The notes: generated by a model from the sequence alone, not told the origin. Counted from the first letter of the stretch, positions 1,185-35,949 are shown. The stretch: 49,061 nt of DNA from an uncultured Paludibacter sp. (GCA_937870645.1 CALMZF010000097.1:1-49061), one strand, 5' to 3'. A program made the numbers and translations.

Positions 1185-2498
1185 TCAGAATTTATATTGC
1201 AGTCGTAAGGTAAAGGTATTGTCTTTTTGATCGGAGGTGAAGGCAGCCAGAGCGGATGTGGTTTCGTTCTTTACAAATTCATAATAAGCCTGTAGACGCA
1301 AACTTGGCTGAATACGCCACAAAAGTCCAAGACCCAGCGTGCTGTATTTTATATCGGCTTTGCTGGTAGAAACTCCTCCAGAATACGCGCTTCCTACTTC
1401 ATTGCCGCTAATTGCTGTATTCGGGTCGTAAACATCATATTTCACAACAGCCGAGAAGGGAATTTGACCGATGTCCTGTACCAGTATAGCATACCATCCG
1501 TTAATCGGACGAAGATAGGTGTCATATGCATTGGTACCCGAAGGAATTGACGGCCGATTAGGACTGGCTGTGCTCGACGAGCTGCCCGGCTGTGTTCCCC
1601 AGATGTATTCTCCTCGCAATTGGGTCATTCCCACGGGAGATTCAAAACTCAGCTGTCCGTCAAATCCGATATATTCCCGCTTAGCAAACTGACCAATGTT
1701 TTCGTCGCTGGTATTTGCGGCAAAACCGCCATCATTCATGGTATACACTTTAGCAGTGGTCTGATATACTCCACCGTTGTAGTACGAAGCTCCCAATCCC
1801 CAGCGGGCTGTATTGCCTATCGGTTTTGTGGCGACAATGTGTCCGATAAAGTCCTTGCGGTTATCCGTTTCGGGATTGATGGCATTGCCGGCAAAGAGGC
1901 CCCCTTCGAATTTCAGGAAATTGAACGAAGACGTCGCGGCAGGTTGCAGTACCAGCATACCTCCTAAATCGGTTTCTTCGGGGAATAACTGATTGACTAT
2001 GCGTGACCGCTCGGGCGATTCGAGAAGAGAGGAAGAATATGAAATTTCGTTTCCAAACGGACGATCGAAAATACCGGCTCTCAGTGCTGAGGTTTTTAAC
2101 CATGGAGCTTTTACGTTAAGATAAGCCTCTTTGAGTTGTACGGTTGCTCCTGATAGCCCCGGTTTGTCGATGATATTCAACTGAAATACTCCTGAAGCCA
2201 GTTCACCTGCATCATAGGTAAATTTCAAACGTCCGCGACGAATACCTATACGATTGAAAGATTTTGTAGCATCTGTATTGGCCGTACCCACTCTCAGAGC
2301 AGCCGATTCTTCGCCCCACTGATATTGTGGCTGAATGTAGCCGGTAATTTTCAGATTGTTCAGTTTGGAAATGGTAACATCATGTGTTTCCACTTTTTGC
2401 TGAACTTGTTCGAGCGGAGTTAAATTTTCATCCTGCGCTGTGGCGGTAAATACCGATGTTGCAATGGCAACGGTGTAAAGAATACTTTTTAGTCTCAT
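1185..2498 (-). CDS. Outer-membrane porin, likely phosphate-selective porin O/P-like
   Basis: Signal peptide ending ...FTATAQ, alternating beta-strand pattern and a C-terminal ...LRLQYKF aromatic terminus. Sits directly upstream of pstS on the same strand. Confidence 0.6.
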   Translation of the reverse strand: MRLKSILYTVAIATSVFTATAQDENLTPLEQVQQKVETHDVTISKLNNLKITGYIQPQYQWGEESAALRVGTANTDATKSFNRIGIRRGRLKFTYDAGELASGVFQLNIIDKPGLSGATVQLKEAYLNVKAPWLKTSALRAGIFDRPFGNEISYSSSLLESPERSRIVNQLFPEETDLGGMLVLQPAATSSFNFLKFEGGLFAGNAINPETDNRKDFIGHIVATKPIGNTARWGLGASYYNGGVYQTTAKVYTMNDGGFAANTSDENIGQFAKREYIGFDGQLSFESPVGMTQLRGEYIWGTQPGSSSSTASPNRPSIPSGTNAYDTYLRPINGWYAILVQDIGQIPFSAVVKYDVYDPNTAISGNEVGSAYSGGVSTSKADIKYSTLGLGLLWRIQPSLRLQAYYEFVKNETTSALAAFTSDQKDNTFTLRLQYKF

Positions 2499-15876: not shown

Positions 15877-18204
15877 TTATTTCTGAACACGTTGTACCGA
15901 ATTGATTTCCTTTATTTTTATCAGGTTGTTTATCAGGTTATTGATGTCTTTTGTGTCGTGGATAATTACCTCAAATAATCCTAAAAAAACTCCGGCATTA
16001 CTTTCGATATTGATTTTACTGACGTTCACGTTGTTTTCCTCTGAAATAACTTTTAGAATTTCAATTACAATACCAATCTTGTCGATGCCTTTAATCTCGA
16101 GGGTCTCAGCAAAAAAAGCATTGTGAGTGCCCCATTCCACATTTACAATCCTGTTTCCAAAATTGCTTTTTATGATTGCCGCCACCGAGCACTGCCTTTT
16201 ATGAACTTGTATCATATGCTGTTCGCTTACGTATCCAAGTACATCGTCGCCGGGTATGGGGTGGCAGCACGAAGCAAGTTCGTACGACTTTCCGACGTCC
16301 AAATCGTTCAATTTGTATGTTTTCTTGAAATCGATTTTTTTGCTTTCAGGCTCCGGTTTGACTTCAGGAGTTTTTTTATCAGCCGATGAGCTGCTCCCAA
16401 ATGGATTTTTCAGAATTTTTGAAAATACACTTTGGGATTTGGTTTTGAAAATAATTTTTGATACATCCTCCAGATTTATCTGTCCCTGTCCGGCTTGCAG
16501 GTACAGATCGGCCCGTGTTTCCAGGTTGTAGTGATTCAGTAGTTTCACTATATTTTCATTCCCCGGTTTCTGCTGAATGTCTTCCAGTGCAACTTCAATT
16601 TTTTTCTGACCGGCGGTCATCAGGTTTTTTTCTTCTTTTTTGAAATACAGCCTGAGTTTTGATTTGGCATGCGCTGTGGTCACAAATTGCAGCCATTCGC
16701 TTTGTGGCGTTTGCTTTCGCGAAGTAAGAATTTCGACCTGGTCACCACTATTGAGTTTGTGATTAAGAGGAACAAGTTTATGATTAACCTTGGCAGCAAT
16801 GCTCCGGTAACCCACATCGGAGTGGAGCATAAAGGCAAAATCCAGTGCTGTAGCATCTTTTGCGATGGTTTTTATTTCGCCTTTGGGAGTAAATACAAAA
16901 ATTTCGGAAGCAAAAAGATTTAGCTTGAACGTATCGATGAAATCCATGGCGTTTGGTTCCGGATTTTCGAGCAATTCTTTGATTGTTTTCAGCCATTTAT
17001 CGAGTTCCGATACCTCGTCGTCGCCTGTTTTGTACTTCCAGTGGGCTGCCAGTCCTTTTTCAGCTATTTCGTTCATCCGCTCGCTGCGAATTTGGATTTC
17101 CACCCATCTTCCTCCAGGTGCCATTACTGTTACATGCAGTGCTTCATACCCATTGGCTTTGGGAGTACTTACCCAGTCGCGGATACGCTCGGGGTGAGGT
17201 TTATAGATGGCCGTAATGGCAGAATAAAGCATCCAGCACTGGTCTTTCTCATTGAGACCTTCTTTGGGTTTGAAGATGATGCGAAGTGCCAGAATATCAT
17301 ATACATCCTCAAACTGTATGTTGCGGGTGGACATCTTATTCCAGACCGAATAGACGGATTTAATCCTTTCCTTGAGTTCGAATTCATAGCCCATTTCTTC
17401 GAGTTTATGGTATATAGGCTTTGAAAACTCATTATAGAATTTATTCAGTGATTTTTTGGCACCTTCAAGTTTTTGCTCTATTTCGTGGTATGTTTCGGGG
17501 TGTTCGTATTTGAAACTGAGATTTTCGAGTTCGGTTTTAATTCTGAAAAGTCCCAACCGGTGGGCAAGGGGTGCGTAAATATATTCTGTTTCACCTCCGA
17601 TTTTGTATTGTTTGGCAGGTGGCATTGAGCCCAACGTACGCATGTTGTGCAGACGGTCGGCGATCTTGATTAAAATCACCCGGATGTCTTCCGACATGGT
17701 CAGAATGAGTTTGCGAAAATTTTCAGCTTGCTCGGATGCTTTCTCGCCAAATACTCCGCCGGAAATTTTGGTCAAACCATCGACAATCTCAGCTATTTTA
17801 GGGCCGAACAGATTGGCAATGTCTTCGGTGGTATAATCGGTATCTTCTACCACGTCGTGCAGCAAAGCCGCACAAATAGAGGTGGACCCAAGTCCGATTT
17901 CGCTCACCACAATACGTGCCACAGCCAGCGGATGAAGTATGTACGGTTCGCCCGATCGGCGCTTCACTCCCTTGTGAGCCGCACGTGCAAAGTTAAATGC
18001 TTTGGTGATTATTTCGATTTTCTTCCGGTGGTTGGTGTTCAGATAATCCTGCAACAACCCATCGAATTCTTTCTGAATAATCTCATCTTCAGCGGTATGA
18101 TCTGTATGATTGTTTTCGGTCATAGTACTTTTTTGCTGTGAATTCTGTGCGACAAGATTTTCCTCCACTTTTTCCTCTTTTTTCACAGGAATTAAATCAT
18201 TCAT
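15877..18204 (-). CDS. Bifunctional (p)ppGpp synthetase/hydrolase, RelA/SpoT family
   Basis: HD hydrolase domain (RRSGEPYILHPLAVA...LLHDVVEDT), synthetase domain (YDILALRIIF...GYEALHVTV...EIQIRS) and TGS and ACT-like C-terminal domains. Confidence 0.95.
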   Translation of the reverse strand: MNDLIPVKKEEKVEENLVAQNSQQKSTMTENNHTDHTAEDEIIQKEFDGLLQDYLNTNHRKKIEIITKAFNFARAAHKGVKRRSGEPYILHPLAVARIVVSEIGLGSTSICAALLHDVVEDTDYTTEDIANLFGPKIAEIVDGLTKISGGVFGEKASEQAENFRKLILTMSEDIRVILIKIADRLHNMRTLGSMPPAKQYKIGGETEYIYAPLAHRLGLFRIKTELENLSFKYEHPETYHEIEQKLEGAKKSLNKFYNEFSKPIYHKLEEMGYEFELKERIKSVYSVWNKMSTRNIQFEDVYDILALRIIFKPKEGLNEKDQCWMLYSAITAIYKPHPERIRDWVSTPKANGYEALHVTVMAPGGRWVEIQIRSERMNEIAEKGLAAHWKYKTGDDEVSELDKWLKTIKELLENPEPNAMDFIDTFKLNLFASEIFVFTPKGEIKTIAKDATALDFAFMLHSDVGYRSIAAKVNHKLVPLNHKLNSGDQVEILTSRKQTPQSEWLQFVTTAHAKSKLRLYFKKEEKNLMTAGQKKIEVALEDIQQKPGNENIVKLLNHYNLETRADLYLQAGQGQINLEDVSKIIFKTKSQSVFSKILKNPFGSSSSADKKTPEVKPEPESKKIDFKKTYKLNDLDVGKSYELASCCHPIPGDDVLGYVSEQHMIQVHKRQCSVAAIIKSNFGNRIVNVEWGTHNAFFAETLEIKGIDKIGIVIEILKVISEENNVNVSKINIESNAGVFLGLFEVIIHDTKDINNLINNLIKIKEINSVQRVQK

Positions 18205-32632: not shown

Positions 32633-32640
32633 TATCTTTG
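32633..32640 (+). promoter_or_regulatory. Bacteroidota -7 promoter box for metH
   Basis: TATCTTTG lies 18 nt upstream of ATG 32659. The TTG used by the ORF track (32638) is inside this box. Confidence 0.5.
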
Positions 32641-32658
32641 CATATCAAAACAACAATT

Positions 32659-35600
32659 ATGAACTTACGTACAGAACTTCAAAGCCGCATTCTGATATTG
32701 GATGGTGCAATGGGTACGATGATCCAGCGTCATAAACTCACCGAAAAAGAGTATCGCGGTCAGCGATTTGCCGATGTCGGAATTTTACAAAAAGGGAATA
32801 ACGATTTGCTCACGCTGACACAGCCGGATATTATTCAGTCTATTCATGCAGCCTATCTGGAAGCTGGTGCTGATATTATTGAAACCAATACATTCAATGC
32901 TCAGCGTATTTCGATGGATGATTACGGAATGGGAGCGTACGTTCACGAAATAAATTCAACCGCTGTAAAACTTGCCCGAAAAGTTGCCGATGAGTATACT
33001 GCTGCCAATCCTTCAAAACCACGATTTGTAGCCGGTTCGGTAGGGCCAACCAATAAAACGGCTTCCATGTCGCCCGATGTGAATAATCCGGCTTTTCGCG
33101 CGGTAAGTTACGATGATTTGGTCGAAGCATACGAAGAGCAAATCACGGCTTTGATTGAAGGTGGGGTAGATGCTTTACTGATTGAAACCATTTTTGATAC
33201 ACTGAATGCAAAAGCGGCCATTTTTGCAGCCGAGAAAGCAATGGATAAACTTGGGAAACGGGTAGAACTGATGCTTTCAGCCACGGTGGCGGATGTGAGT
33301 GGCCGTACTTTATCCGGTCAGACTATCGGAGCTTTTCTCACTTCCGTTTCACATGCCAATTTATTGTCTGTTGGGCTTAACTGTTCATTTGGAGCAAAGG
33401 ATTTGAAACCCTATTTGCAGGAAATAAGCAGCCGTGCACCGGTTTATGTCAGCGCTTATCCCAATGCCGGTTTACCCAATCAGTTTGGCGAATATGATGA
33501 GACACCGGGAAAAATGGCTCTTCAGGTAAAAGAATATATTGATGAGCAACTGGTAAATATTATTGGTGGTTGTTGCGGAACCACGCCCGATCATATAGCA
33601 GAATACTGTAAATTAATTAAAGATGCAAATGTACGTTTGCCAAAAAGTAAAAGTAATGATCTGCATTTGAGCGGATTGGAGGAATTGGTGATAAAGAGTT
33701 TCACCTCACCCCTAACCCCTCTCCCCGGGGAGAGGGGAACCAAAACCTGGCAGGAAGGAATGAAAAATGCAAACATGACAACAGACGCAATGTCATGGAA
33801 GTATCTGATTGACAATGCAAAAAGGATGAGAAGTGAACCTACCAGTGCAGAAAAGTTACTTTGGAAAGAACTCAGAGATAAACGTATTGGCTACAAAATC
33901 AGAAGACAACATATCATTGATGGTTTTATTGTTGATTTTTTATGTTTGGAAAAAAACGTAGTCATTGAGGTTGATGGTGGAATACATATAGGAAGAGAAC
34001 AGCGTGAATACGACGAGGAACGAACTCGTTTATTGAATATTAAAGGTTTTCAGGTAATTCGTATAACAAATGACGAAGTGGAAAGTAATTCTTTTGAGGC
34101 TGCCCAAAAAATCAGGAAAGAATTAGATGAATATCCTTTAAGACAACCAAATGATAGTGATGATACGCATGCCATTTTCCCCTCTCCCCGGGGAGAGGGG
34201 GCAGGGGGTGAGGTCATAACTCCCGAAACAAGCGTAGAAGGTATTGATAAACAGGAACAATCCCTCTTCCTCAACATCGGTGAACGATGCAATGTAGCCG
34301 GTTCACGCATGTTCCTGCGTTTGATCAATGAAAAAAAATACGAAGAAGCTCTTTCGATTGCACGTAATCAGGTAGACGACGGTGCACAGGTCATTGATAT
34401 CAATATGGACGACGCGATGCTGGATGCAAAGCAGGAAATGACTACTTTTCTGAATTATATTGCTTCGGAACCTGAAATTTCTCGCGTGCCGGTTATGATT
34501 GACAGTTCAAAATGGGAAGTAATAGAAGCGGGACTGAAATGTGTACAGGGAAAAAGTATTGTCAATTCCATCAGTTTGAAAGAAGGTGAAGAGGATTTTT
34601 TGTCCAAAGCCCGTAAAATAAGAAAGTATGGTGCTGCTGCGGTTGTGATGGCATTTGATGAAAAAGGGCAGGCTGACAGTTTTGAACGGAAAAAGGAAAT
34701 TTGCAGTCGTGCATACAAATTGCTGACCGAAAAAGCCGATTTTCCACCTCAGGACATAATTTTTGACCCGAATGTACTTGCCATTGCCACCGGCATTGAA
34801 GAACACAATAACTACGGTGTTGACTTTATCAACACGATCCGGTGGATAAAACAAAACCTGCCTTATGCTAAAGTGAGCGGTGGTGTGAGCAATCTTTCTT
34901 TTTCTTTCCGGGGAAATAATCCCGTGCGTGAGGCTATTCATTCCGCATTTCTTTATCATGCTATTCAGGCCGGAATGGATATGGGAATTGTCAACGCTGG
35001 AATGTTGCAGATTTACGAAGACATACCGGCCGATATGCTCCAACATGTGGAAGATATTGTGCTCAACCGCCGGCAGGATGCTACCGAACGGATGATAGAG
35101 TTTGCCGAAAAGGTAAAGAATGATACTTCCGGCGGAAAACAGGTTCAGGTAGATGCCTGGCGATCTGAATCGTTGCAGAAAAGACTGGAATACGCTCTTA
35201 TAAAAGGTGTCTCCGATTATCTCGAAGACGATTTGGCCGAAGCGCTGACCGTTTATCCTACTGCGATTGATATAATCGAAAAACCGCTGATGAGCGGAAT
35301 GAATATTGTGGGTGAACTGTTTGGCTCAGGAAAGATGTTTTTGCCCCAGGTGGTAAAAACAGCCCGAACGATGAAAAAAGCAGTCGCTATCATTCAACCG
35401 GAAATTGAAAAGCAGAAAGTTCCCGGTCAGAGTTCATCAGCCGGTAAATTTCTGATTGCTACGGTTAAAGGAGATGTACATGATATAGGGAAAAATATCG
35501 TGGCTGTCATTTTAGCCTGTAATAATTTTGAGGTCATTGACCTGGGAGTGATGACACCAACCGAAAAAATTATTCAGACTGCCATTGATGAAAAAGTGGA

Positions 35601-35949
35601 TATTGTGGGATTGAGCGGACTGATTACTCCTTCGCTGGAAGAAATGTGTAATGTAGCTGCTGAGATGGAAAAAGCCGGATTGAAAATTCCGTTGCTAATA
35701 GGCGGTGCAACTACTTCCAAACTTCATACGGCTGTAAAAATAAATCCGAATTACAGCGGACCGGTGGTTTATGTGAAAGATGCATCGGTTAATACATCGG
35801 TTGTTGCAAATTTGATGAATGAAAAGACCAAAGATGTTTACATATCGGCCATCGAGGATGAATATCAGATTTTGCGCGATAAGCAGGTGAGTAAAACGGA
35901 ATTGCTTTCGTTGGATGACGCAAAAAGTAGAAAACCCAAGTTGTTTTAA
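32659..35949 (+). CDS. metH: Cobalamin-dependent methionine synthase (Hcy, pterin and B12 domains, no AdoMet reactivation domain) carrying a 175-codon in-frame insertion
   Basis: Hcy domain with Zn ligands ([15 protein letters not shown]), pterin domain starting [12 protein letters not shown], and cap plus B12 domain with [11 protein letters not shown]. Foreign sequence sits between ...LSGLEELVI and TPETS.... Confidence 0.95.
33696..33739. repeat. Left terminal inverted repeat containing a perfect 22-bp palindrome
   Basis: GAGTTTCACCTCACCCCTAACCCCTCTCCCCGGGGAGAGGGGAA. The palindrome CCCCTCTCCCCGGGGAGAGGGG is at 33716-33737. Translates to ...[14 protein letters not shown]. Confidence 0.85.
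33760..34134 (+). other. DUF559 (PF04480-type, Vsr-like PD-(D/E)xK fold) domain module embedded in the metH reading frame
   Basis: [47 protein letters not shown]...[24 protein letters not shown] matches the DUF559 pattern (xTxAExxLWxxLR...FRRQ...IxDF.C....L.IExDGxxH...D..R...L...G..V.RF.N.E). An internal ATG at 33760 is preceded by GGAAGGA. Confidence 0.85.
34177..34222. repeat. Right terminal inverted repeat containing the same perfect 22-bp palindrome
   Basis: TTCCCCTCTCCCCGGGGAGAGGGGGCAGGGGGTGAGGTCATAACTC. Its reverse complement aligns with the left TIR. Palindrome at 34179-34200. Translates to ...[13 protein letters not shown]. Confidence 0.85.

Follow-up and report, generated by a model that had tools for sequence, protein, structure and literature searches.

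The methionine synthase gene (metH) of an uncultured Paludibacteraceae bacterium, located on contig CALMZF010000097.1 of the assembly GCA_937870645.1 (positions 1-49061, referred to here at its full length of 49,061 nucleotides as the window), carries an element whose only gene encodes a DUF559 endonuclease-fold domain and whose ends are terminal inverted repeats containing hairpins. The element stays open in the reading frame of its host, is present or absent in closely related alleles, and encodes a nuclease domain under strong purifying selection, while related inserts have been transferred laterally between species at the same site. Nor is this insert a one-off, given that it represents one instance of a large family found at in-frame sites in many conserved genes. 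With a rough probability of 0.6, these features reflect a homing-type selfish nuclease element which does without splicing and sits in permissive linkers.

The original prediction, made from this sequence, had proposed a DUF559 module in the metH linker and had asked whether it drives the homing of its own element, a possibility that the population-genetic signatures described below would favour, above all the inserts that appear to be younger than their flanks. Full-text literature searches found no published description of DUF559 elements in frame in host genes, the sole related hint being an enrichment of DUF559 proteins in a survey of programmed inversions (PMC9881135). Homing-type selfish elements in general are known already, and what is new here is the splicing-free form.

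The element in metH and its translated repeats

The metH coding sequence, taken from the list of open reading frames (ORFs) and matched by the NCBIfam methionine synthase model TIGR02082 at 1341 bits, occupies 32659..35949 on the plus strand, within a stop-free frame of 1103 codons that opens with a TTG start at 32638 (32638..35949, plus strand). Translated from the ATG at 32659, its product has 1096 residues and is identical to P0001, a protein found in public assemblies. Pfam gives the domain order as S-methyl_trans, DUF559, Pterin_bind and, C-terminal to the latter, two B12-binding domains. The homocysteine S-methyltransferase domain (S-methyl_trans, PF02574; 32692..33612, plus strand) covers residues 19-325 of the 1103-residue ORF with E = 1.1e-100, DUF559 (PF04480) covers residues 390-496 with E = 9e-30, and the pterin-binding (methyltetrahydrofolate) domain (PF00809; 34279..34995, plus strand) covers residues 548-786 with E = 2.6e-61. 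This order and the stop-free 1096-residue frame bear out the placement of the module, in frame, in the linker between the homocysteine and pterin domains.

The in-frame inserted segment spans 33694..34218, the interval first proposed (33695..34219) being one base out of frame. When aligned by blastn and MAFFT with L001, the closest allele that is empty at this site, the stretch without counterpart is 33684..34254 (plus strand), in which 571 nt stand for 13 nt and the window is thus longer by 558 nt (186 codons); the foreign segment was thus rightly taken for an insertion, and its extent, given as 175 codons, was too short. By the same alignment, the empty allele also lacks the peptide that follows the right repeat. 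This peptide had been read as the start of the pterin domain and is instead an extra linker of 13 residues outside the right repeat (34215..34254, plus strand), absent from empty alleles in the alignments to both L001 and the 910-residue MetH, which may be a remnant of older insertions.

Extra residues outside the repeats are found on both sides in the window, with KSF at the left (33684-33702) and the 13-residue peptide at the right (34215-34254). Conserved extra peptides also occur outside the repeats of P0005, P0008, P0013, P0014, P0017 and P0101, of the form LSPxVE[YF]Y on the left and of the ..TPE.. type on the right. All of these extra residues may be what is left of earlier insertions nested at this hotspot.

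Within the foreign stretch, 33703..34214 is an intact copy of the element, i.e., one DUF559 gene between two hairpin-bearing terminal inverted repeats. A repeat search located the left repeat at 33703..33739 (plus strand), formed by an outer box ACCTCACCCC, a 3-nt spacer and an inner palindrome, and the right repeat at 34177..34214 (plus strand), formed by the inner palindrome, a spacer and an outer box GGGGGTGAGGT. The arms measure 37 nt (left) and 38 nt (right) and agree at 35 of 38 positions, so that the repeats expected around the module are present, at less than the ~44 bp first attributed to them. Repeats of this kind are those of a transposon with terminal inverted repeats or of a miniature inverted-repeat transposable element (MITE), and their architecture is conserved at related loci.

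The perfect 22-nt palindrome CCCCTCTCCCCGGGGAGAGGGG, located by repeat and motif searches, is present once in each arm (33716..33737 in the left, and, in identical form, 34179..34200 in the right), with a hairpin free energy (dG) of -10 kcal/mol for the left copy as single-stranded DNA. Because both arms hold this palindrome, they are also direct repeats of each other. Its 18-nt core occurs only twice in the 49-kb window, where 0.01 occurrences are expected by chance. No further copy of the palindrome or of the outer box was found in the window, an extra ACCTCACCCC at 17191 being a chance match in ordinary sequence, and there is no second copy of the element elsewhere in it.

Read in the metH frame, the left arm gives 12 residues and the right arm 13. 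The G+C-rich palindromic arms are free of stops in the frames used and would encode flexible tethers rich in Pro, Ser, Gly and Glu (TSPLTPL..ERG and PSP.GEG.G..), and for this reason the nuclease would be attached to MetH as an additional domain with a fold of its own. The ORF list and Pfam agree with the earlier statement that there is no transposase, DUF559 being the sole ORF of the element. No consistent direct repeat that could represent a target-site duplication lies outside the ends at the 58 loci examined; an ATAA near the ends in the window has an asymmetric offset (8 nt and 1 nt) and is absent at the other loci.

The DUF559 domain, a Vsr-like PD-(D/E)xK endonuclease fold, lies at 33805..34125 (plus strand), as placed by Pfam, structural matches, invariant columns and an AlphaFold2 (AF2) model. 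Against the insert alone, PF04480 scores 107.4 bits (cut-off 20.6; E = 4.6e-31) over profile positions 3-108 of 109, in line with the full-length signature that had been proposed. The insert also matches NCBIfam PRK09767 (E = 8e-19, under the equivalog cut-off of that model) and the structures 3HRL (E = 3.6e-16) and 3R3P, or I-Bth0305I (E = 1e-3). All of the family-invariant residues are present in the window (D-F, E-x-D-G-x-x-H, D, R, R-x-T-N-x-E-V). The residues D55, E66, D68, G69 and H72 (A2 numbering), which include the D...E-x-D core predicted to be intact, are invariant in 11 aligned cores, that of the window among them, and at least 98% conserved over 99 MetH inserts.

I-Bth0305I (3R3P) is a proven homing endonuclease (PMC3239194), and Vsr, DUF559 and I-Bth0305I were placed in one clade by Steczkiewicz et al. 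2012. Given this homology (3R3P, E = 1e-3), nuclease activity of the insert is plausible. A methionine lies upstream of the core in only 5 of 96 inserts, and an internal translation start giving a free nuclease was rejected on this basis; without a start codon of its own, the nuclease would be made only as part of the host protein. In the AF2 model of the full protein, which derives from a shallow alignment with a mean predicted local distance difference test score (pLDDT) of 61 and is to be treated with caution, residues 390-495 of the 1096 form a folded alpha-alpha-beta-beta-beta-alpha-beta-alpha module at pLDDT 67-86. The two segments of ~50-55 residues that flank it, which include the translated repeat arms, fall below 50, and the model thus predicts a folded domain between two disordered tethers.

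Two other settings for the domain were considered and rejected. Membership in a defence system found just weak PADLOC matches, the best being 'HEase homing endonuclease' (E = 3.7e-5), and phage carriage found a single weak IMG/VR match, at 33% identity.

As for the host gene itself, metH has a phosphoglycerate mutase gene immediately upstream and a histidyl-tRNA synthetase (HisRS) gene immediately downstream, and the G+C content of the DUF559 core is 33-35% versus ~43% for metH. The S-adenosylmethionine (AdoMet) activation domain PF02965 has no match in the window MetH, nor in its 910-residue insert-free orthologues. The window MetH is therefore a short form which lacks the C-terminal AdoMet-binding reactivation domain, and its reactivation must depend on something else. 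Short MetH forms of this type are known in Bacteroidota and in some other bacteria.

Allele states, selection and transfer at the metH site

Two independent assemblies, produced by separate projects (ENA ERZ27240681 and JGI 3300038828; L002 and L003), encode the identical 1096-residue protein, which excludes misassembly and confirms that the junctions are real. The empty allele L001 is syntenic, with phosphoglycerate mutase upstream and HisRS, S15 and a PAP2 gene downstream; its flanks are 96.2-96.6% identical in DNA, and it encodes a MetH of 910 residues. Judged by these alignments, the segment in metH is an insertion and not an old fixed domain, since a syntenic allele of ~96% identity is empty and since empty and filled alleles are interleaved across the host tree. 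The comparison of orthologues thus came out as the original prediction had anticipated for an insertion. The opposite outcome, in which all orthologues would be filled by a segment devoid of repeats, was not encountered: many are filled, but with repeats, and they stand beside empty and solo alleles.

The allele survey covered the 120 best MetH homologues, mostly from Paludibacter and Paludibacteraceae, parsed by linker pattern. The first parse gave 94 filled alleles, with inserts of 156-278 residues at precisely the same position, and a looser pattern recovered five more matches of 1082-1117 residues with DUF559, for 99 filled alleles of 120. Nearly all begin with TSP[LP]xPLL[EK]ERG, the translated left arm, right after SGLEELxI, and end with PSPQGEGxGVR, the translated right arm, right before SLFxNIGER. 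Seventeen of the 120 are empty, each with exactly 910 residues and a 3-residue linker, and four have short inserts without DUF559, P0119 being an 18-residue solo hairpin (TSPPAPLPSTQGEGLGVR). Filled, empty and solo states are interleaved on a tree built from the host parts alone, and the site thus presents, with L001 empty and with empty, solo and both types of filled allele intermixed, the presence/absence polymorphism of a homing endonuclease gene.

The two types of filled allele correspond to the insert lineages A and B, whose mutual identity is only ~50%. Among hosts that share 98.7-99.6% identity, the inserts may be just 48-51% identical (P0044/P0077, P0016/P0062 and P0091/P0096), and one syntenic locus with flanks of 96-98% identity is found in three states, as type A (L004), type B (L005) and solo (L006). 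The B allele contains a complete B element, with arms of its own (ACCTCACCCCTCACCCCTCTCCCGAGGAGAGGGG ... CCCCTCTCCTCGGGAGAGGGGGCAGGGGGTGAGGT), flanked by the outer half of the left arm of A on one side and by a full right arm of A on the other. This nesting of B within the hairpin of A suggests that B targets the scar left by A. The solo allele is explained by a deletion between the two GGGG(AA)CAGAGGTCC direct repeats.

Within each lineage, the distance between inserts tracks that between hosts (Pearson r = 0.885 for A, over 2080 pairs, and 0.76 for B), while the A-to-B insert distance is ~0.5 at any host distance. A silent second cassette as the source of A/B switching was not supported, as each complete chromosome among the best 80 of 258 related loci has one locus. 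The complete chromosomes checked for a second locus were OW818663, OY781920 and CAXXNE01 for MetH-A and OY782761 for MetH-B, and B-type matches score well inside the list.

Selection was estimated as the ratio of nonsynonymous to synonymous substitution rates (dN/dS) by the Nei-Gojobori method, on unsaturated pairs. The DUF559 core has a dN/dS of 0.03-0.16 (median 0.06), which places the nuclease under strong purifying selection, and the flanking MetH of the same filled alleles has a dN/dS of 0.015-0.058, so that MetH is still selected while it carries the insert.

Lateral transfer was assessed by comparing the divergence of the core with that of 450 nt of metH on each side. In five pairs, each formed by two different reference species, divergence is significantly lower in the core than in both flanks, and in several species pairs it is 2-5 times lower in the insert than in the adjoining metH. 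The values for core, left flank and right flank are 1.7%, 8.2% and 4.4% in L017/L004 (p = 4.5e-4), 3.1%, 6.0% and 10.4% in L020/L004 (p = 7.0e-4), 3.1%, 7.1% and 10.9% in L017/L020 (p = 1.6e-4), 6.5%, 16.4% and 14.9% in L009/L011 (p = 6.6e-6), and 8.5%, 15.6% and 15.8% in L010/L011 (p = 6.8e-4). Among L017, L004 and L020, where it could be estimated, synonymous divergence (dS) is 3-5 times lower in the insert, with 0.067 in the insert versus 0.32 in the host for L017/L004.

In a sliding profile of L004 against L017, the drop in divergence from 10-15% to 1-2% coincides exactly with the left repeat, and the low values persist for ~300 nt into the right flank. Such a profile is the pattern expected if insert and flank had recently been copied together between diverged alleles. 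The lateral spread characteristic of a homing endonuclease gene is therefore found in five species pairs, and is not demonstrable for the lineage of the window itself.

The family in other host genes

HMMER, run exhaustively against 1.84 billion cluster representatives, returned 20,641 matches at E < 1e-3, and 82 of the 149 nearest representatives retrieved are proteins of at least 250 residues with an internal DUF559. Pfam analysis of ten representatives identified, as hosts, leucyl-tRNA synthetase (LeuRS; several), another class I synthetase, an Eco57I-type methylase, a type ISP restriction enzyme, and TPR/PAS-SpoIIE phosphatases. Peptides rich in Pro, Ser, Gly and Glu flank the domain on both sides in all of the embedded copies.

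A scan of GTDB, in which each species was represented by a single genome, yielded 258 relatives, and host genes were classified for the best 80. As many as 77 of these 80 loci lie inside long open frames. MetH is the host in 30 of them, followed by LeuRS at a site before the editing domain (~23), an IcmF-like mutase in Mucilaginibacter (9), a DUF5107-TPR protein in Paludibacter (7), LeuRS at a second site, after the editing domain (3), acetyl-CoA synthetase (2), a type ISP enzyme (2) and UvrA (1), and the remaining three copies are free-standing. Two different genes are occupied in one genome in JBBQMQ01, CAZFTY01 and DHXR01.

At 58 of the 80 loci the two ends were identified, and they have the same terminal-repeat architecture, which consists of (A/G)CCTC[A/T]CCCC, a spacer, CCCCTCTCC-loop-GGAGAGGGG, the gene, and a mirror image that ends in GGGG[A/T]GAGG(T/C). 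Of 100 distinct arms, 84 retain a perfectly paired stem of 8 bp or more, and there are variants compensated on both sides, such as CCCCTCCCC/GGGGAGGGG. The same ends are also found on copies without the gene. One of these, just upstream of metH in L015 (1202-1398, minus strand), has 197 nt with an AT-rich interior, and another, in intergenic DNA near an occupied gene in L028 (~822-1096), is MITE-like, with two matches to the palindrome core ~255 nt apart. A free-standing intergenic copy with repeats is found at L067.

Other arrangements were observed in the wider family. In L007 (2352-3897), the gene for queuine tRNA-ribosyltransferase (TGT) contains a DUF559 element that has repeats of its own (GCAACCCCACCCTGACCCTCCCCAAAGGGGA / TCCCCTTTGGGGAAGGGTTGGGGATGGGGTTGC). 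The left junction of this element is out of frame and divides the gene, which is annotated as two pieces, an N-terminal fragment and a DUF559-TGT-C fusion; it may be a split gene or a pseudogene, or the frameshift may come from sequencing. Local accumulation can also occur, as in P0193 (377 residues), one of the ten representatives analysed with Pfam, which has three tandem DUF559 stretches without a host domain, and in the Eco57I-type methylase P0203 (1214 residues), which has two DUF559 domains together with long runs of repeated hairpin-derived peptides (..GDHALRERGL.., ..ELPSPREGVGEGSGVRA..). At L008 (2990-3110), a free-standing intergenic DUF559 gene (P0126) has the G+C-rich hairpins TCTCCCCAAAGGGGAGA and CCCCTCCTTTGGAGGGGGCGGGGGAGGT upstream and none downstream, and the ORF call reads through the hairpins. 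Many of the annotated 'N-terminal extensions' of DUF559 proteins are probably translated repeats.

The proposed cycle, its alternatives and known systems

In the mechanism proposed here, an element without splicing machinery sits in the linker of 3 residues that joins the homocysteine barrel to the folate barrel and would be translated through, with MetH presumably keeping its function while carrying the nuclease domain. The nuclease would cut element-free alleles, at the empty linker site or, for the nested B, probably at the hairpin left by A, and recombinational repair from a filled allele would then copy the element in, sometimes with flanking sequence. Deletion between the repeated arms would cause loss and leave solo hairpins, which may result in a cycle of gain, decay and re-invasion. 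Residual nuclease would attack a newly emptied site and so select against loss, and this could keep the nuclease under selection without frequent transfer.

The arms may play a double role in this cycle, as cis-acting sites at the DNA level and, as coding sequence, in the form of tolerable flexible tethers. The terminal repeats are most likely cis-acting sites of the nuclease, since they are conserved across unrelated host genes and on gene-less copies, and they would probably also permit rare jumps to new genes. Given the conserved repeats, the MITE-like copies and the several host genes, a hairpin-directed transposition component has to be considered alongside homing, and the two may well coexist.

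Several observations weigh against homing as a sufficient account. The cutting of DNA by the DUF559 domain and the target of this cutting are putative, and the strong purifying selection may also stem from an advantage that the domain gives its host. Classical homing endonuclease genes have no terminal inverted repeats, and the metH element does; these conserved repeats and the gene-less MITE-like copies in L015 and L028 add a transposon-like component beyond pure homing. The insertion is not a clean addition, as 490 nt replace 10 nt of linker in simple type A alleles, with no target-site duplication. In addition, A and B co-diverge with their hosts and yet alternate within species, for which a simple homing cycle falls short.

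The lineage of the window offers little help on these points, as it has no close donor in the databases, the nearest filled allele (P0002) being 82% identical in the host part and 69% in the insert. A co-conversion tract at its own insertion is only suggestive: the window and L001 differ by 10% over the 200 nt to the right of the site, and this raised divergence is no stronger than that of other patches along the locus.

The most serious competitor is a hairpin-ended transposon, in which the DUF559 nuclease would recognise the palindromic repeats and excise or copy both the element and its MITE derivatives, much as in REP/RAYT or IS200/IS605 elements, while copies in essential genes would be survivors, imprecise loss being lethal. 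The repeat architecture conserved across unrelated host genes and orders of Bacteroidota, the stems kept or compensated in most arms, the gene-less and free-standing intergenic copies, and the genomes with two occupied genes all fit this idea, as does the finding that the annotation 'DUF559 domain-containing protein' is overrepresented in genes with inverted repeats on both sides (PMC9881135). On the other hand, neither a recognised transposase (DDE, HUH, Ser or Tyr) nor a large number of dispersed copies was found; there is no target-site duplication, and copy number is low, with no other copy in the window and one locus per complete chromosome among the best 80 of 258. Occupancy is moreover concentrated at a few orthologous sites shared across genera, which is typical of homing and not of random transposition, and random insertion followed by selection should leave mostly intergenic copies, whereas 77 of the best 80 are intragenic and in frame. 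A transposon as the whole explanation is thus unlikely, although it may operate together with homing. A repeat of the abundant, repetitive extragenic palindromic (REP) type was rejected, as the palindrome and the outer box have no further copies in the 49-kb window apart from the chance match at 17191.

An old exapted domain, which entered once in the ancestor of the clade and was kept for some host benefit (e.g., repair or regulation), with the empty alleles as secondary losses, would account for the dN/dS of ~0.06, for the correlation of insert and host distances within lineages (r = 0.885), and for the insert being found in ~100 MetH clusters. Repeated deletions, however, would not restore a MetH of exactly 910 residues with a 3-residue linker in all 17 empty alleles, near-identical hosts carry A, B, solo or empty sites, several species pairs have an insert of more recent origin than the sequence around it, and the same module and repeats in functionally unrelated proteins argue against a role specific to MetH, all of which makes this history improbable.

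Even less credible is a programmed invertible segment whose repeat-mediated flip toggles metH off and on. Inverted repeats of 37-38 nt and the enrichment of DUF559 genes among predicted targets of programmed inversion (odds ratio 14.3; PMC9881135) would suit such a switch, but inverting the interior puts 8 stop codons in metH and inverting the whole element puts 2, no frame is open on the reverse strand, the ~100 filled alleles found in public data all have the forward, open orientation, and neither of the genes adjoining metH (phosphoglycerate mutase and HisRS) is a recombinase.

The least probable of the alternatives are an intein, an intron or an assembly chimera. An in-frame insertion in a conserved gene recalls the first two, and most alleles start the insert with Thr and have Ser as the first residue after it. 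Pfam nevertheless finds no Hint or intein domain, just ~55 residues lie outside the core, and the family consensus at the C-junction (..GVR/S, the slash marking the junction) has no His-Asn, with ..LVI/KSF.. and ..GGEV/ITP.. at the window junctions, which agrees with the absence of intein hallmarks noted earlier. An Rfam scan of 33300..34600 (E <= 1) gave weak hairpin matches only, with no group I or II ribozyme, and an element removed from the RNA would not have to remain stop-free and in frame across ~100 diverged alleles. The agreement between independent assemblies argues against a chimera.

The homing-type reading brings the metH element close to inteins with a homing endonuclease, with which it shares an in-frame selfish nuclease insertion at specific sites of conserved or essential genes, expression through host translation, patchy presence in close relatives and lateral spread to the same site. 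Inteins, by contrast, have HINT splicing and catalytic junction residues, neither of which is found in the metH element, predicted to stay in the mature protein; they lack terminal inverted repeats with hairpins, and their nuclease is of the LAGLIDADG or HNH type instead of DUF559/Vsr-like. The Vsr-like (EDxHD) homing endonucleases of 'fractured genes' (Dassa et al. 2009, PMC2677866) and I-Bth0305I (Taylor et al. 2011, PMC3239194) belong to the same superfamily branch as the insert, but they are encoded in group I introns or between the halves of split inteins, and their host gene is restored by splicing. The similarity to I-Bth0305I is also remote, the closer structural relative being the uncharacterised protein of 3HRL.

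Rickettsia palindromic elements (RPEs) and in-frame MITEs (PMC10969869) share with the metH element the translation of palindromic mobile DNA as an extra peptide in functional proteins, and the solo-hairpin alleles P0119 and P0118/L006 look like insertions of this kind. They encode no protein, however, whereas the metH element has a conserved nuclease gene under purifying selection, and they proliferate genome-wide, unlike the low-copy, site-specific family described here, so that the likeness to RPEs is one of behaviour only. The REPs with their associated tyrosine transposases (REP/RAYT, or REPtron) and the insertion sequences IS200/IS605 likewise have a single small gene flanked by inverted hairpin repeats, gene-less derivatives with the same hairpins and no target-site duplication. 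Their enzyme is a Y1 (HUH) transposase and not a PD-(D/E)xK nuclease, and REPs are intergenic and abundant, in contrast with the mostly intragenic, in-frame and low-copy elements of the metH type.

Should this interpretation be correct, it would provide a third way for a homing-type nuclease to reside in an essential gene, besides self-splicing introns and inteins, in which the element never removes itself and brings flexible, stop-free linker-coding ends that are tolerated as an extra domain. It would explain many odd DUF559 'fusions' in the databases, namely those with LeuRS, MetH, UvrA, the IcmF-like mutase, acetyl-CoA synthetase, SpoIIE phosphatases and restriction enzymes, and would offer a concrete, testable function for DUF559, a large family with more than 20,000 cluster representatives at E < 1e-3. 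The insertion sites would form a natural catalogue of permissive positions for domain insertion, with ready insulating linkers for protein engineering, and the nucleases, if they prove to be site-specific, a possible new source of such enzymes. The polymorphism of A, B, solo and empty alleles would also be a tractable natural system for the study of the homing cycle and of competition between selfish elements in bacteria.

On a broader view, which seems about evenly balanced, elements formed by DUF559 plus hairpins would be an unrecognised and widespread mobile class of Bacteroidota and neighbouring phyla, occupying the niche of inteins without splicing; A and B would have replaced each other repeatedly at metH across Paludibacteraceae, with B in the hairpin of A suggesting the targeting of scars, and the RNA motif whalefall-1 may correspond to a related terminal repeat. 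There is a fair chance that the element deserves recognition as a class of its own.

Finally, whalefall-1 (RF01762) is an orphan metagenomic RNA motif described by Weinberg et al. 2010 (PMC2864571), whose consensus CUCUCC-UUGG-GGAGAG ... AGGGUGAGGAC resembles the inner palindrome and outer box of the window element. It scores 21.5 bits at 34178-34215 (plus strand) and 17.7 bits at 33702-33738 (minus strand) in the window, and 24.2 bits at 1347-1384 (minus strand) in L015, all below the gathering score of 37, and a 24-nt internal segment of the model is missing from the window arms. Taken as a lead and not as membership, this resemblance indicates that whalefall-1 might be the terminal repeat of a related element.

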